Source: a virus (Duplodnaviria; Heunggongvirae; Uroviricota; Caudoviricetes). From it: DNA of 4,379 nucleotides. Where the stretch lies: the IMG/VR virus record IMGVR_UViG_648276671_000010, positions 1 through 4,379 of that record, one strand, 5' to 3'. The notes beneath the pieces were generated by a model that had not been told where the DNA came from, did no database searches, and saw only the letters and a program-made list of their open reading frames with translations. Positions within the stretch are counted from its first letter, which is position 1; each line of letters begins with the position of its first letter. Below, piece after piece: positions 1 through 4,379 of this stretch. A program made the translations under genes and the position numbers.

Positions 1-221
1 CATTTATCGGGTGTCCATAGCGAAGTTCATAGCCAGCCGGTAGCTGGACTTCCCTTGCCTCCAGTTCTGCAATGCGCTTGTCTTTGGCTTCCAGTTCATC
101 AAGAACCGTTTTTTATGGCTGGTGAATGTGTCGCATAACTCGCAGCCGGACCGGCAAGCATTATCCTGAGCTGCGTTTTCGCTTTTTCCGTGTTCATTTG
201 GTTCATTACCTTATTTAGTGG

Positions 222-629
222 CTATATTCCCCAATAGAACGTTAGTATACGCTGCATAACTTCGCTTTCCCGGCACTCGCTACAGATTATGTTCTGACGC
301 CTGTCATAACGACGTATTTCTCCGTCTGGTAATGACCAGATAAGGTCCGGATCAACCACAGATGTTTTTTTCTTCAGCTTTGCCCTTGAGAGTTTTTTGC
401 GGGCATTTTGCCAGTCCTTACGAGCCTGTTCTGACGGGAATAACCCGTAGCCAGAATTGTATACATCGCCACTGGCAACCAGCTCTCTGGCGAGAACACT
501 CATCAGATATCTTGTTGCCCCGGTTTTAGCTTCCAGTTGTCGTAACGTCTCGCGCCCACTCTGGCGTACAAGCTCAACAACCTGCCCTTTAATTTTTTCC
601 CACTCTTCTTGTGTAAAAACTTTTGCCAC
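222..629 (-). CDS. hypothetical prophage protein (135 aa), function unknown; last visible gene of the minus-strand early operon
   Basis: ORF from the six-frame track. GTG start at 629 with GGAGG Shine-Dalgarno (complement of 634-638) 4 nt upstream. Same orientation as, and 40 nt downstream of, the replication-protein gene. No family recognised by eye. Confidence 0.55.
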   Translation of the reverse strand: MAKVFTQEEWEKIKGQVVELVRQSGRETLRQLEAKTGATRYLMSVLARELVASGDVYNSGYGLFPSEQARKDWQNARKKLSRAKLKKKTSVVDPDLIWSLPDGEIRRYDRRQNIICSECRESEVMQRILTFYWGI

Positions 630-669
630 AAGTCCTCCTGAAAATTACCTCATAAGCTGAAATAAACAC

Positions 670-1740
670 TTACCCCCTGAAGCCCGGCGGAATTTCGGTA
701 TCCGGTTCAGAAATATGATTCACACAACGCTGGTTGTTCGTGCCGCTTACCGGGAGCAACCAGGGGTTTTCAAAATTCCGGTCCGGTCCAAAAAACGTCG
801 TAGCTCGCTGAACAAATTCCGTTCCCGTTTTCCCTGTAGCCGCCAGGTATCTTGCGTAACGCCTCACGCCATCCAGCATGGCCTCTGGTGGCACCCCCTC
901 GCGTAATCTGGCCTTCCAGGCACTGAAAGCGGATTTCTTCGGGTTTGCCCCGGCACGCAACGGGTACTCCCGCCAGACCTGTTCGAACACATCCGGATAA
1001 TCCACTCGTCCCACAGACTGCCCGGTGCTTTCCGGGACTACCCGATCGGCTTCCCGCTGAATGGCGGAATCGGCTTCAGGCTGTTGCAGTTGGTGTGATT
1101 GCTCCGGCCTTGCGGTCATCACCTGCTGCACAGCGCCCGAATCGGCTTTCAGCGCATACGCTGAATCGGCTTCCGGTGTCGTGCCTGCTGTCTGACCAGG
1201 ATTGACGGTCTGAACATCCCCTGCCTGGTTCGTGGCGTTTTTTACGCCATGGACCATAGTGTTTTGATCTTCTTGATCTGTATCTGTATCTGTATCTTTA
1301 TCTGTCGTGACTCGTCGTGACATGTGCGTGACATTTCGTGACGCGCCGTGACAATCGCCATTTTGTTCCCGCTTTCTTTCCCTCTCTCGCTGCGCCCTCT
1401 TGCGCTCTGCAGGAGATTTTGCGGTTTGCGAAATATTGCCGTTGTCCTCTTTAAGCACCTGGCGTTTTTCCCATCCAGTGATTAAATCACCATCAAGTAC
1501 CCGCCCCTGCATCGTCTGCAAAATTGAATCAATTACCTCTTCTGTCACGTCGAGCGCACTTGCCAAATCTTCTGTCGTGACATCAATGTGACCTCGCGTG
1601 ACATTTCGTGACGCGCTCACCAGGAGGTGGATATACACTGCCATCACTGTTGCAATTGGCTGCCCTGACACCCTGGCAATTGTTCGCCACTTAGGGTCAT
1701 TTGGGATGTCATGCCATAATCTGAGCCAGGCGTTAGCCAT
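670..1740 (-). CDS. phage replication initiator, functional analog of lambda O (YdaU-like): N-terminal region, acidic low-complexity linker (ERKRAQRERERKREQ, KDTDTDTD), C-terminal domain
   Basis: Track ORF is 670..1746 with a GTG at 1746. The in-frame ATG at 1740 has a GAGG SD (complement of 1746-1749) at 5-nt spacing that overlaps the GTG, so the start is placed at 1740 (protein MANAWLRLWHD...). Sits in the O position after the cro-like and cII-position genes and contains phased iterons in its coding sequence. YdaU-like assignment is from memory. Confidence 0.7.
   Translation of the reverse strand: MANAWLRLWHDIPNDPKWRTIARVSGQPIATVMAVYIHLLVSASRNVTRGHIDVTTEDLASALDVTEEVIDSILQTMQGRVLDGDLITGWEKRQVLKEDNGNISQTAKSPAERKRAQRERERKREQNGDCHGASRNVTHMSRRVTTDKDTDTDTDQEDQNTMVHGVKNATNQAGDVQTVNPGQTAGTTPEADSAYALKADSGAVQQVMTARPEQSHQLQQPEADSAIQREADRVVPESTGQSVGRVDYPDVFEQVWREYPLRAGANPKKSAFSAWKARLREGVPPEAMLDGVRRYARYLAATGKTGTEFVQRATTFFGPDRNFENPWLLPVSGTNNQRCVNHISEPDTEIPPGFRG
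1281..1304. repeat. hexanucleotide tandem repeat (TATCTG/TATCTT) x4 inside the replication gene; encodes the DKDTDTDTD linker on the minus strand
   Basis: Direct reading: tatctg tatctg tatctt tatctg at 1281-1304, AT-rich, next to two GATC sites (1266-1269, 1275-1278) and immediately upstream of iteron cluster 1. Confidence 0.8.
1306..1352. repeat. iteron cluster 1: five direct copies of CGTGAC phased at 10-11 bp (putative ori iterons)
   Basis: CGTGAC at 1306, 1316, 1327, 1337 and 1347 on the plus strand; spacing matches the DNA helical repeat. Lies in the linker-coding part of the O-like gene, as lambda ori does within O. Confidence 0.65.
1575..1612. repeat. iteron cluster 2: four direct copies of (C/T)GTGAC phased at 10-11 bp
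   Basis: CGTGAC at 1576, TGTGAC at 1587, CGTGAC at 1597 and 1607. The 21-bp string gcgtgacatttcgtgacgcgc occurs exactly at 1326-1346 and 1596-1616; tctgtcgtgac occurs at 1301-1311 and 1571-1581. Confidence 0.6.
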
Positions 1741-1811
1741 ACTCACCTCTTCTGATACCGAATCTTTTTACTCACGAGTTGCCGGAAGCGATTCGATATG
1801 GCTATTATCAC

Positions 1812-2237
1812 TCAATGCACTGCCACAGCATTTCCTGCCGGGCCACCACGGTTCATCTGATTGAAACCGGCGATTGCCACTGCGACAAAATCATCAGCGT
1901 CTCTCACCAGTCGTTCCCGCGTCTCCACCAGCTCCCGAAAATAGGCTGAACTGTGGCTGCGCATTCGGGCCACCAGCAGAGGTGGCATTGCTTTTTCGAT
2001 CGCTGGTAACAACGCCTGAATTTTTTTAACCGCATCAGGGGTGTCTTTCTCCACCCAGCGGAAAATTTTCTGAGTATTGCGAGCCAGGGCTTCCGGATGG
2101 CTGTCGTCATACAGTTCCGGGAACGTCATTCCCAGCTCGAAATACGCTTTGGTAATTTTCGCAGCCGGTACTTTTTCGCCGTCCGGATGTGCCCAGGCAT
2201 TCATCGCCATGCGGATGTGCTCATGCTTGATTTTCAT
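1812..2237 (-). CDS. ydaT: YdaT-like protein, occupying the cII position of the switch
   Basis: 141-aa track ORF beginning MKIKHEHI. ATG at 2235-2237 overlaps the upstream cro-like stop in an ATGA arrangement (translational coupling); GGGAG SD 7 nt upstream. Family assignment from memory of Rac YdaT; needs blastp. Confidence 0.75.
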   Translation of the reverse strand: MKIKHEHIRMAMNAWAHPDGEKVPAAKITKAYFELGMTFPELYDDSHPEALARNTQKIFRWVEKDTPDAVKKIQALLPAIEKAMPPLLVARMRSHSSAYFRELVETRERLVRDADDFVAVAIAGFNQMNRGGPAGNAVAVH

Positions 2238-2497
2238 GAATCAACTCCCGCAGCTGGTTGTGTGTTAGCCTGATAGTCAACAGGTATGCCATCGGTTGGG
2301 TTGGGGTAAGTATTGCTATCAATCTCGTGCGGGGTCACTACCCACCCTGTTGCTTCACACCAGCGTAAAATTTTTTCCCCCGTAAGTTTCGCCCGTCCAG
2401 TAATGACATGGCTTACCATCCCTTGGGTTGCCCCAACAATTTCAGCAAACTTTTTCTGGGTTATACGGGAATGATGCAAATATTCTCCAAGCTTCAT
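2234..2497 (-). CDS. Cro-like HTH DNA-binding regulator (YdaS-like)
   Basis: Track ORF 2234..2509 (MRRTMKLGEYL...). The internal ATG at 2497 has a GAGG SD (complement of 2503-2506) at 5-nt spacing, whereas the 2509 ATG has none, so the start is placed at 2497 (87 aa). HTH-like motif ITQKKFAEIVGATQGMVSHVITG. First gene transcribed divergently from the repressor. Confidence 0.75.
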   Translation of the reverse strand: MKLGEYLHHSRITQKKFAEIVGATQGMVSHVITGRAKLTGEKILRWCEATGWVVTPHEIDSNTYPNPTDGIPVDYQANTQPAAGVDS

Positions 2498-2527
2498 TGT
2501 TCGCCTCATGTTATGTGATCACGAACA

Positions 2528-2569
2528 TTAATAGCATTGTTATTTTTGAAAGTAAATAGCATCACTATT
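2528..2569 (-). promoter_or_regulatory. PR-like early promoter with two operator sites: site A 2530-2544, site B 2555-2569; -35 TTTACT (complement of 2551-2556), extended -10 TGcTATTAA (complement of 2528-2536)
   Basis: Read on the minus strand: AATAGTGATGCTATT (site B) and AATAACAATGCTATT (site A), centres 25 bp apart, are 7-1-7 inverted repeats sharing a perfect TGCTATT promoter-proximal half. A 17-bp spacer separates the -35 and -10. Predicted start near 2520, about 24 nt before the cro-like ATG. Confidence 0.6.
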
Positions 2570-2604
2570 TCAAAGAGATTAGTAATCTTATTAGAATTGA
2601 AGGT
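2568..2604 (+). promoter_or_regulatory. PRM-like repressor maintenance promoter: -10 TAGAAT 2592-2597, weak -35 near 2569-2574; transcript predicted to start at or next to the ATG (leaderless)
   Basis: TAGAAT ends 7 nt before the ATG at 2605, and no SD sits at usable spacing (AAGG is 1 nt from the ATG). The weak -35 abuts operator site B, whose centre is about -43 from the predicted start. Geometry parallels lambda PRM/OR2. Confidence 0.4.
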
Positions 2605-3104
2605 ATGAAAAGAAAACCCCTGTCAGAGATCGACCTACAAGCAGCCCAGAGACTGAAAGAAATCTGGACGACAAAAAAACTCAACTTGGGTTAACCCAAG
2701 AGCGTGCGGCAGAAATTCTGGGGTTTTCGACACAAGGGGCAGTAAGTCATTACCTAAATGGTCAGACACCTTTAAATCTAGAGGCTGTTATCAAGTTCGC
2801 TGGGTTGCTGCAAGTTCCGCCCGAGTCAATTAGACCAGATATGGCAGACTTGTTACGAATTGTAAGGATGTACCCCCAAGAACCGCAGCAGGATAATGTT
2901 GTCGCTTTACCCGCAGAGATGGAACAATCGGAAAACGAACTTCCGTTTAATATAGAACCTATAGAGCGAGATTTGATCCAGACGTTCAGGGCTTTCCCAA
3001 AAGAAGACAAAGAGAAAATGCTTAAGGAAATGAAGGAGAAAAAAGAATCAATTGAAGAAACCGTTGCGCGGTGGCTAGAGGCGCAAAAAGGTCGTCGCGC
3101 CTAA
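2605..3104 (+). pseudogene. cI-position prophage repressor (XRE/cI-type HTH, PaaR-like, no S24 peptidase domain), interrupted by a 1-nt frameshift in this sequence
   Basis: ATG at 2605 reads MKRKPLSEIDLQAAQRLKEIWTTKKLNLG then TAA at 2692-2694. The HTH continues in the -1 frame (LTQERAAEILGFSTQGAVSHYLNGQTPLNLEAVIKFAGLLQVPPESI...) to the TAA at 3102-3104. Restoring one base in GGGTTAACC gives a 166-aa protein whose N-terminus parallels lambda cI (KKxxLGLSQE). The first canonical start in the downstream frame is TTG 2805, after the HTH. Confidence 0.6.
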
Positions 3105-3121
3105 TCTGAGGAGGTTAGAAC

Positions 3122-3313
3122 ATGAGTACAGCCCTTTCCCCGATAATTTCAGAATTTGAAACAATCGAACAAGAAAACAGCTATAACGAATGGTTACGCA
3201 CCAAAGTGGCAGCAAGCCTCGCAGACCCCTGTCCTGCAATTCCACATGACGAAGTAATGGCTGAAATGGAAAACCTTATTGCTCAAATAGCTTCGACGAA
3301 CAGGAGTGAGTAA
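3122..3313 (+). CDS. type II antitoxin (63 aa), PaaA-like partner of the ParE toxin
   Basis: GAGGAGG SD at 3108-3114, 7 nt before the ATG at 3122. Its stop overlaps the toxin start (TAATG at 3311-3315). Small acidic protein; the motif SEFETIEQENSYNEWLR matches my memory of PaaA2. Starts 17 nt after the repressor stop, so it is co-operonic with the repressor. Confidence 0.75.
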   Translation: MSTALSPIISEFETIEQENSYNEWLRTKVAASLADPCPAIPHDEVMAEMENLIAQIASTNRSE

Positions 3314-3603
3314 TGCTACCCATTTTATGGCTACCTTCTGCGCGTGATGATTTGCGTGAGATTGTGACCTATATTGCCAAAGAAAGCCCTCCCGCTGCAC
3401 GTAGACTAAAAATGCGCATTGAAACATCAGTTTTGTCACTAACTGAGCACCCTTACCTGTATCCACCAAGCGAAAGAGTTCCAGGCCTTCGTGAGATAGT
3501 GACCCATCCTAACTACATAATACTTTACCGAGTAACAGCATCTAACATCGAGATCGTAAATGTAGTTCACACACGAAGGCAGTATCCAAACAAAAGCTGT
3601 TAA
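3313..3603 (+). CDS. parE: type II toxin, ParE/RelE superfamily (ParE-like, 96 aa)
   Basis: AGGAG SD at 3302-3306. Typical ParE/RelE length and motifs (N-terminal LPILWLPSARDDLREIVTYIA; C-terminal GLREIV...YRV...IEIVNVVHTRR). Translationally coupled to the upstream antitoxin. Confidence 0.85.
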   Translation: MLPILWLPSARDDLREIVTYIAKESPPAARRLKMRIETSVLSLTEHPYLYPPSERVPGLREIVTHPNYIILYRVTASNIEIVNVVHTRRQYPNKSC

Positions 3604-3617
3604 TCATTCCTGCCAAC

Positions 3618-3639
3618 AACCACCTTTGGGTGGTTTTTT
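3618..3639 (+). terminator. intrinsic (rho-independent) terminator ending the repressor-antitoxin-toxin operon
   Basis: Stem AACCACC (3618-3624) pairs with GGTGGTT (3629-3635), loop TTTG, followed by a T-run to 3639. Lies 15 nt after the toxin stop. The reverse complement has no trailing T-run, so it is unidirectional. Confidence 0.6.
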
Positions 3640-3658
3640 CTTGCTCTTCAAAAAAAAC

Positions 3659-3700
3659 AATAGCATTGCTATTTACACAACAAAATATCAATGCTATTGT
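3659..3700 (+). promoter_or_regulatory. PL-like early promoter with two operator sites: site C 3659-3673 (perfect AATAGCA-T-TGCTATT), site D 3684-3698 (AATATCA-A-TGCTATT); -35 TTTACA 3672-3677, extended -10 TGcTATTGT 3692-3700
   Basis: Same 15-bp inverted-repeat motif, same 25-bp centre spacing and same overlap with the -35/-10 as at PR. 17-bp spacer. An A-run (3650-3657) lies upstream. Predicted start near 3707. Confidence 0.6.
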
Positions 3701-3876
3701 TCATTCATCAACCCACCCCGCCCCACAGAATGCAGGGCAATACTTCGAGTTACCAGGTAGTGGTCAGGGGTTAAGTAGCCAGCCCGAGGCGTAAGAACAT
3801 GACGGCAGGGTTCAACTTTAACTATGCAGCAGGTTTTTGTTCCGCTACCCCGGCGTTAAGGGGAAATGAGGTCAGC

Positions 3877-4029
3877 ATGGATACTATCGATCTTGGCAAC
3901 AACGAGTCTCTGGTATACGACGTGTTTCCCAACCAGGACGGCACGTTCACGGCGATGACGTATACCAAAAGCAAAACATTTAAAACCGAAGCTGGCGCGC
4001 GTCGCTGGTTAGCCAGAAACACTGACTGA
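3877..4029 (+). CDS. small early-operon protein (50 aa), YdaF-like; alternative in-frame start at 3799 would give 76 aa
   Basis: Track ORF 3799..4029. The internal ATG at 3877 has a GAGG SD (3867-3870) at 6-nt spacing; the ATG at 3799 has GAGG (3786-3789) at 9-nt spacing. The shorter product matches the roughly 50-aa length I remember for the YdaF family. Start uncertain. Confidence 0.5.
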   Translation: MDTIDLGNNESLVYDVFPNQDGTFTAMTYTKSKTFKTEAGARRWLARNTD

Positions 4030-4040
4030 TGAGGTTGACG

Positions 4041-4379
4041 ATGGAATTTAAAGATTTACCAAAAGAAATCCAGTCCATTGCTGCAACGACACTTAGTGAT
4101 AGCCTGGTGGAAATTAACCCGGCATACATCAAAAAGGAAACCATCGATAATTTGGTTCGTAATGTGCGCGATGCGTTTACCGGATTGTACTCCGTTTCGG
4201 TAACAAACAACCAGAATACTGAAGAAGCTGCAAAGCGGAATGCCTCGGTGACGGGTTTTCATGTCGAGGAAAAGTATTCAAAAAAAGAATTCTGGAAAAC
4301 TGCAAAAAAAATTGCAGAGCGAGAACTGTCATCTCCTGCGGCAATCGGTTCTTTCTATGAGGAAAGTTATTCAGATGAC
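4041..4379 (+). CDS. hypothetical early-operon protein, 3' partial (at least 113 aa; runs off the window end)
   Basis: ATG at 4041 with GAGG SD (4031-4034) at 6-nt spacing; open frame with no stop through 4379 (MEFKDLPKEIQSIAATTLSDSLVEINPAYIKKETIDNLVRNVRDAFTGLYSVSV...). Not in the track because it has no stop inside the window. Function unknown. Confidence 0.6.
   Translation, partial: MEFKDLPKEIQSIAATTLSDSLVEINPAYIKKETIDNLVRNVRDAFTGLYSVSVTNNQNTEEAAKRNASVTGFHVEEKYSKKEFWKTAKKIAERELSSPAAIGSFYEESYSDD

Follow-up and report, generated by a model that had tools for sequence, protein, structure and literature searches.

A probable lambdoid immunity repressor with a PaaR/DicA-type tail in place of the S24 peptidase domain, its gene broken by a frameshift

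Introduction

By which route could a lambdoid prophage be induced if its repressor does not carry the peptidase domain on which RecA-stimulated autocleavage depends? This question is raised by a stretch of 4,379 nucleotides from a virus of the Caudoviricetes (IMG/VR record IMGVR_UViG_648276671_000010, positions 1 to 4,379; hereafter the window), in which an earlier note, made from the letters alone, had recognized a repressor gene whose product ends soon after its helix-turn-helix (HTH) and had reasoned that, if this is the immunity repressor, its induction cannot follow the classical SOS route.

Repressors of such a build have been described from several prophages. The three-gene locus paaR2-paaA2-parE2 lies in the cryptic prophage CP-933P/Sp12 of E. 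coli O157:H7 (Hallez 2010; Jurenas et al. 2021, PMC8630535), and PaaR2 is a CI analogue that has no peptidase motif and is not reactive to mitomycin C, its locus being bistable (PMC8630535). In the Sakai strain the repressors of Sp4, Sp6, Sp9, and Sp10 are without a peptidase domain, and mitomycin C does not induce Sp6, Sp9, or Sp10 (PMC2669165). DicA, of prophage Qin in E. coli K-12, has no Ala-Gly bond and is relieved by the antirepressor Rem, with spontaneous switching in a subpopulation (PMC10448788), while the Gifsy repressors, placed in the same class as DicA and RacR, are inactivated by LexA-controlled antirepressors (PMC3121763). GfoR, GtgR, and RacR stand for a wider class of lambdoid repressors that are short and non-cleavable (Lemire 2011; Ragunathan 2023). 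Here we find that the gene in the window very probably encodes an immunity repressor of 166 aa from a lambdoid prophage, belonging to the short, non-cleavable PaaR2/DicA class, and that it is broken by a deletion of one nucleotide. The non-cleavability is a published property of this class and is not new; what is specific here is the chimeric build and, for this copy, the frameshift.

The restored repressor and its missing peptidase

The reading frame that opens with the ATG at 2605 ends after 29 codons at the TAA of 2692-2694, and the 3′ five-sixths of the gene follow as a single open frame, which contains the K/E-rich peptide KEDKEKMLKEMKEKKESIEETVARWLEAQKGRRA exactly and stops at 3102-3104 (Table 1). 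Where three intact E. coli homologues read ACGACGAAAAAAACT, the window aligns as ACGAC-AAAAAAACT. Putting the base back gives a protein of 166 aa that differs in one residue from WP_021568728.1, and the restored length given in the earlier note was thus correct. No fewer than 70 complete genomes of E. coli carry intact homologues of the same length, within prophages that seem complete.

Table 1. Features of the immunity region, with positions counted from the first letter of the window.
Feature	Position	Strand	Basis
YdaT (CII analogue, 141 aa)	1812-2237	-	Pfam YdaT_toxin
Cro analogue, YdaS-like HTH protein, 91 aa, divergent from the repressor	2234-2509	-	profile match, annotation of relatives
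OR, two 15-bp pseudo-palindromic predicted operators (2530-2544 and 2555-2569), consensus AATAGCATTGCTATT, 25 bp apart	2530-2569	.	
PRM-like promoter, TTCAAA-17-TAGAAT	2569-2597	+	
Repressor 5′ fragment, ATG to premature TAA, 29 codons (MKRKPLSEIDLQAAQRLKEIWTTKKLNLG*)	2605-2694	+	start same as in intact homologues
Lambda-cI-like N-terminal DNA-binding domain, residues 1-90, spanning the frameshift	2605-2873	+	PDB, Foldseek, Pfam
Frameshift site, where intact homologues have one more base (between 2672 and 2673)	2668-2682	+	
Remaining repressor frame with its stop codon (residues 30-166), shifted by -1 from the frame of the ATG	2691-3104	+	
Acidic linker, predicted disordered, residues 91-116, no K/R, 6 D/E	2874-2951	+	pLDDT, composition
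C-terminal 50-aa helical module, PaaR/DicA type, residues 117-166, putative dimerisation/oligomerisation domain	2952-3101	+	sequence and model
PaaA-type antitoxin gene, 63 aa	3122-3313	+	Pfam PaaA2, 1.2e-20; PDB 3zbe PaaA2, 6e-22
ParE-type toxin gene, 96 aa	3313-3603	+	Pfam ParE_toxin; PDB 5cw7_B ParE2, 2e-37
Terminator-like hairpin with T run, after parE	3618-3645	+	
OL, two further predicted operators (3659-3673 and 3684-3698)	3659-3700	.	

The N-terminal part of the restored protein is a DNA-binding domain of the lambda cI kind. In a PDB sequence search 1lmb matches residues 2-82 (E=1.6e-9), and HTH_3, at residues 27-74, together with HTH_31 are the sole Pfam matches above the gathering thresholds. 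Foldseek against the PDB aligns the domain with that of lambda cI at 35% identity (TM 0.83-0.93 on the target), and it is 54% identical to the N-terminal domain of cI from the Stx-type phage Lyz12581Vzw, an Stx2-phage cI. The AlphaFold2 model, built with 15 homologues and having a mean pLDDT of 76.7, is wholly helical and has no strands: helices run to residue 89, residues 93-112 are disordered (pLDDT<50), and a hairpin is formed by residues 119-129 and 133-165.

No sign of a cleavable repressor was found in what follows the HTH. Peptidase_S24 (PF00717) was not found in the restored 166 aa in a Pfam scan at E<=1, while the cI of Lyz12581Vzw, run as a positive control against the same library, scored 2e-28, and the PHROGs and NCBIfam profiles returned transcription-regulator families only, with no peptidase match. 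No Ala-Gly occurs within residues 75-166, the sole AG of the protein (66-67) lying in the DNA-binding domain. The predicted tail consists of two helices, the beta-rich fold of a catalytic Ser/Lys dyad was not seen with AlphaFold2 or Foldseek, and Foldseek against the PDB gave matches to the N-terminal domain of lambda cI only, with full-length lambda cI (3bdn) aligning over 96 columns. None of the marks of the LexA/lambda-cI S24 class, namely PF00717, an Ala-Gly or Cys-Gly in the linker, and a beta-rich fold, is present. A Pfam match to "Tad5" on residues 106-159 was set aside as a sub-threshold charged-helix match (E=0.0099, 16 bits against a cutoff of 27).

On these points the earlier note, which had denied the protein an S24 domain, a cleavage site after the HTH, and a Ser/Lys dyad domain, is borne out. 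Its description of the remaining part as short, charged, and K/E-rich also stands, half of the last 50 residues being charged (8 K, 10 E), but this part is 92 residues long after the Pfam HTH match and not about 110. Since there is no S24 domain and no cleavage site, and since PaaR2 and DicA have homologous tails, the classical RecA-stimulated autocleavage appears unavailable to this protein, as that note had proposed, and we infer that self-cleavage of this kind does not inactivate the repressor. The same has already been stated in the literature for PaaR2, DicA, the Gifsy repressors, and several of those of O157 Sakai.

A C-terminal module shared with PaaR2 and DicA

The closest tail is that of WP_000986592.1, a PaaR-type regulator of 133 aa encoded in a second prophage locus of O157 EDL933 (58% identity over 64 aa, E=2e-22), and that of PaaR2, whose sequence was recovered through a 61-nt probe assembled from published primers, is 50% identical over 44 aa (E=4e-15). 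Outside the tail, similarity to either protein was sought and none was found. The N-terminal domain of WP_000986592.1 is an XRE/DicA-like HTH and not a lambda-cI-like one, and PaaR2 likewise differs from the window protein in its N-terminal domain.

Reaching DicA required a comparison of profiles, because a single tail sequence does not arrive there: an exhaustive phmmer search with the tail against 1.84 billion representatives gave only 11 matches at E<=1e-3, DicA not among them. A profile of 11 PaaR-type tails aligns with one of seven DicA-type tails at 96.8% and E=2e-10 (hhalign). The NCBIfam model for DicA (NF007257) matches residues 107-162 with E=6e-7, a match to the tail only, since the protein falls short of membership in the full-length subfamily (29.3 bits against a cutoff of 101). 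A bridging protein of 244 aa (P0016) has a tail of the window type and, over 126 aa, shares 38% identity with DicA.

The module has 13 invariant columns across 11 diverse proteins, keeps one length across 70 or more E. coli genomes, and is joined to several unlike DNA-binding domains: the lambda-cI-like HTH, an XRE HTH, the N-terminus of PaaR2, the cI of phage Tritos, and a tandem double HTH in proteins of 244 aa. No solved structure turned up for the tail: by sequence search of the PDB and with Foldseek alike, the matches were to the N-terminal domain of lambda cI only. With tblastn against deposited phages a 55-aa tail query found no match, a search in which the low-complexity filter may mask the K/E-rich stretch, and the full-length query gave matches to the N-terminal domain only. 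From its sequence the protein is best described as a chimera, in which a lambda-like DNA-binding domain with its own operators appears to be joined to a PaaR/DicA tail.

Layout of the immunity region

On the minus strand the genes follow in the order DUF977/LygF, an O-like replication protein with iterons, YdaT, and the Cro-like YdaS, and on the plus strand in the order repressor, paaA, parE, terminator, and DUF1391. This arrangement agrees with that given for CP-933P by Jurenas et al. (PMC8630535). The operator AATAGCATTGCTATT occurs in four copies within the window, two each at OR and OL, giving eight strand-matches against 0.14 expected. Those of OL are likewise 25 bp apart, a PL-like promoter (TTTACA-17-TATTGT) overlaps OL, and the predicted operators overlap promoter-like hexamers for both PRM and PL. 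The -10 hexamer of the PRM-like promoter ends 7 nt 5′ of the ATG, a geometry compatible with a leaderless mRNA as for cI and for PaaR2, which is translated leaderless (PMC8630535). A perfect YdaT box, TTGATTTTCATGAATCAA, lies at 2227-2244 across the ydaS/ydaT junction; the consensus of this box, and such a box at the ydaS/ydaT junction of CP-933P, have been published (PMC9986795). As far as sequence can tell, the repressor gene thus occupies the cI position of a CP-933P-like lambdoid immunity region.

With PaaR2 the window protein shares the place and orientation of its gene (ydaT-ydaS, repressor, paaA-parE, PL), the missing S24 domain, the perfect YdaT box, about 45 homologous C-terminal residues, and PaaA- and ParE-type genes directly 3′ and co-oriented. 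Unlike the 123 aa of PaaR2, it has 166 aa and a longer acidic linker, its gene is frameshifted, and its operators AATAGCATTGCTATT stand against repeats of the GTTTAGTAA type in CP-933P, as expected for a different DNA-binding domain. Because similarity is confined to the tail and the operators differ, we regard the protein as a chimeric relative of PaaR2 and not as its orthologue. Comparison with the paralogous O157 locus of EDL933 locates the exchange: only 2346-2973 of the window, comprising the Cro N-terminus, OR, the repressor N-terminal domain, and the linker, is replaced and without DNA similarity, and DNA homology resumes at 2974, where the tail starts, and runs on at about 79% identity through paaA and parE into the PL region.

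Could the protein then be mainly a dedicated regulator of a three-component paaR-paaA-parE toxin-antitoxin operon? Its gene lies immediately 5′ of paaA-parE and is probably co-transcribed with it, the homology to O157 DNA is unbroken from the repressor tail through the toxin-antitoxin genes, and PaaR2 itself was first described as a toxin-antitoxin regulator (PMC8630535). The operators, however, sit between the repressor and the Cro-like gene at OR and beyond the toxin-antitoxin genes at OL/PL, which is the layout of an immunity repressor, and PaaR2 primarily represses ydaS-ydaT and a PL promoter (Jurenas et al., PMC8630535). Moreover, relatives with the same or a similar tail carry other cargo behind it, HigBA or HipA_2 with DUF3037, so that the tail is not tied to PaaA and ParE. 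Hence we consider a principal role in the toxin-antitoxin operon quite unlikely, and keep to the reading of an immunity repressor.

As such, the protein can be set beside DicA, which is also a short HTH repressor in the cI position, has neither the Ala-Gly bond nor the peptidase, and possesses a homologous tail, although the pairwise identity of the tails is only 25% and the HTH domains differ; DicA adjoins a left operon that runs DUF1391-...-dicB. Of the traits of the DicA and Gifsy repressors, a length of about 135-170 aa with an HTH and no peptidase, and a gene in the cI position of a lambdoid prophage, are found here. With the cI of lambda and of Stx phages it shares a related N-terminal domain, the same genetic position, and the same OR/OL logic, whereas the 50-aa helical module stands in place of the whole S24 domain and its cleavage site. 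The viable phage Tritos shares the flanks of the window at 92-96% DNA identity and has a cI with a DicA-type tail; its virions arise spontaneously, and it is not among the phages reported to be induced by ciprofloxacin (PMC9928086). We place the protein, on its sequence, as an apparently new and uncharacterised member of the PaaR2/DicA/Gifsy class that is an orthologue of neither PaaR2 nor DicA, since their N-terminal domains and operators were looked for here and not found.

How the repressor may work and how it may be relieved

The following draws by analogy on lambda, PaaR2, and DicA, of which the latter two have nothing but the 50-aa tail in common with the window protein. Dimers of an intact repressor would bind the paired operators through the N-terminal lambda-like domain, and the C-terminal hairpin would provide dimerisation and a higher-order association, by analogy with PaaR2, which is cited by Jurenas et al. 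as octamerising in solution (PMC8630535). Such association could allow cooperative binding and possibly looping between OR and OL over about 1.1 kb. PR, which would serve ydaS-ydaT-O, and PL would be repressed in this way, and PRM, with the co-transcribed paaA-parE, would be autoregulated.

The switch out of lysogeny might be stochastic or physiological, passing through a circuit of the Cro-like YdaS and YdaT in the manner of the bistability known from CP-933P and Qin, or it might be thrown by an antirepressor supplied in cis or in trans, as Rem acts on DicA and GfoA/GftA on the Gifsy repressors. By these analogies bistable switching through YdaS/YdaT and an antirepressor supplied in trans appear to be the best-supported options. 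In the related prophage loci, including the seemingly complete prophage of JNEC-KY176 between potB and potC, no annotated antirepressor and no Rem homologue was found; a 92-aa ORF in the rem position of one locus (L001) proved unrelated to Rem. A search for LexA boxes in the window, and in some 78 kb that take in a complete related prophage and its chromosomal flanks, gave no convincing one. The window has one LexA-like site with one mismatch, inside parE, and L001 and a second locus (L008) have one exact LexA core each, one of them intra-coding and the other just beyond the 3′ end of a converging gene; neither count exceeds chance expectation.

A further route would be regulated proteolysis, with ClpXP, ClpAP, or Lon of the host attacking either the disordered linker or the basic tail, which ends in ...QKGRRA. 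The linker is long and disordered in the model, and members of the PaaR lineage keep the basic end with its final Ala, in the forms QKGRRA, QKCRRA, or QKSRRA. We presume that this end resembles the ClpX signals found at the C-termini of MuA and YbaQ. The neighbouring PaaA2, too, is a substrate of ClpAP and ClpXP (PMC8630535). On the other hand, the tail end varies in close relatives (GNKA, HNLL, NNHS, NKPA), and published studies of PaaR2 and of DicA appeal to bistability and antirepressors and not to proteolysis. This makes induction by host proteolysis, in our judgment, decidedly improbable.

The frameshift

At the site of the missing base a run of seven A remains (2673-2679), arranged in the zero frame as A_AAA_AAA, which is a canonical X_XXY_YYZ heptamer. 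It may thus be asked whether the frameshift is bypassed by a -1 ribosomal or transcriptional slip on this run, yielding full-length repressor at a low and tunable level, the more so as a -1 shift gives ...TTKKTQLGLTQ..., the same as in the intact protein, and a 16-nt palindrome, CTTGGGTTAACCCAAG, begins 5 nt downstream. Yet the RNA downstream is no more stably folded than its shuffled versions (z=-0.19), the palindrome is present in intact alleles as well and is therefore not an adaptation, and all relatives examined are in frame. Programmed slippage is accordingly very improbable, and an ordinary mutation or an error of sequencing explains the missing base more simply. Exact-pattern scans for the shifted allele in collections of genome, viral, and metagenome contigs gave no match, so that the reality of the allele is not to be judged from these collections. 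If the frameshift is real, only a peptide of 29 aa would be left of this copy, which would be non-functional, and the repressor gene in this genome may do nothing.

The existing damage to the gene, the close resemblance of its N-terminal domain to that of the S24-bearing Stx-phage cI, and the occurrence of PF00717 in one relative (P0033) could also be taken to mean that a repressor of the lambda-cI/LexA type has decayed here, having lost its S24 domain by deletion and kept a meaningless C-terminal remnant, which is extremely improbable for a tail that is conserved in its invariant columns, related by homology to the ends of PaaR2 and DicA, modelled at good confidence as a hairpin of helices, maintained in length among E. 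coli genomes, and attached to several different DNA-binding domains.

Implications

Taken as a member of the short, non-cleavable class, the repressor illustrates by its modular swap how heteroimmune variants may originate, the DNA-recognition parts being exchanged within about 2346-2973 while the tail and its toxin-antitoxin cargo are kept. One may go further and speculate that the PaaR/DicA tail is a portable cassette for repressor assembly and signal reception, moved by recombination between unrelated DNA-binding domains and, in the PaaR lineage, physically fused to paaA-parE with its junction in the linker at about 2974, an idea that we hold to be rather unlikely. Were the tail to dock an antirepressor or the PaaA-ParE complex, the state of the toxin-antitoxin system and prophage immunity would be mechanistically coupled.

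For the PaaR2/DicA class one would predict no direct response, by way of repressor cleavage, to antibiotics that induce the SOS response, a point that bears on how prophages are induced, and genes transferred, in pathogenic E. coli. What triggers induction in members of the class without an evident antirepressor is a question already recognised in the literature, and the present locus opens nothing new in this respect. The result matters mainly for annotation, as such proteins would be the immunity repressors of common Rac-, Qin-, and CP-933-like prophages of E. coli. In RefSeq they are labelled only "helix-turn-helix domain-containing protein."

Exchange of the immunity cassette

The immunity region of the window is bounded by sharp mosaic borders, which lie at 2250-3710 against phage Tritos (L013) and at 2346-2973 against the O157 paralogue of EDL933 (L002). 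Phage Tritos retains 92-96% identity to the window over 234-2249 and 3711-4020, whereas its cro-cI cassette is unlike that of the window. The O157 paralogue differs from the window in the DNA-recognition core only, and homology is regained where the C-terminal module of the repressor begins.

The same C-terminal module is also found at the end of metagenomic relatives of 240-255 aa (P0013-P0023), in which it follows two tandem HTH domains, one lambda-cI-like and the other DicA/PaaR-like. Those from loci L006 and L007 occupy the cI position next to ydaS/ydaT, and are followed by HipA_2 and DUF3037 genes, not by paaA-parE. In Salmonella diarizonae and a Logan contig (L004 and L005), a 154-aa repressor combines the window type of N-terminal domain with a DicA-like tail, and a HigB-HigA pair comes after it. 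The antitoxin and toxin of the window (see the table) are clear homologues of E. coli O157 PaaA2 and ParE2 (PDB 3zbe, 5cw7); the C-terminus of the antitoxin is more similar to the paralogous EDL933 copy than to PaaA2. Toxin-antitoxin or defence-like cargo recurs repeatedly in the slot 3′ of repressors of this class.

Frameshift in the repressor gene

A 1-nt deletion adjoining an A7 run (window 2668-2700) frameshifts the repressor gene. In the zero frame this run forms a canonical slippery heptamer, A_AAA_AAA, at which a -1 shift would exactly regain the intact protein. The run is followed after 5 nt by a perfect 16-nt palindrome, CTTGGGTTAACCCAAG, but in-frame alleles have this palindrome as well, and the RNA fold was not significant.

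Replication and regulatory elements

Features located in the window
Feature	Window position	Context
Iteron-like and tandem repeats, first stretch	1271-1352	within O-like replication gene
Iteron-like and tandem repeats, second stretch	1574-1612	within O-like replication gene
YdaT operator match, TTGATTTTCATGAATCAA	2227-2244	perfect against published consensus TTGATTN6AATCAA
PaaA-type antitoxin and ParE-type toxin	3122-3603	rexA/rexB position

The iteron-like repeats contain GTGAC and form two clusters spaced 260 bp apart, and the O-like gene also carries three tandem 12-bp units (TCTGTATCTGTA) coding for the acidic stretch DTDTDTD; this repeat region is probably the replication origin. The predicted YdaT site falls exactly on the overlap of the ydaS stop and ydaT start, the same placement as in CP-933P.

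Induction and operon variants

Cronobacter phage phiES15 (match H137) is on record as UV-induced, and it encodes a full-length DicA-like repressor (52% identity across 94% of DicA), hinting that some members of this class remain coupled to DNA damage, presumably via an antirepressor. E. coli O170:H18 (L011) has an immunity cassette closely related to that of the window; in this one case the PL operon encodes a phage regulatory protein of the Rha family (L011 5697-6542) in the place of dicB.
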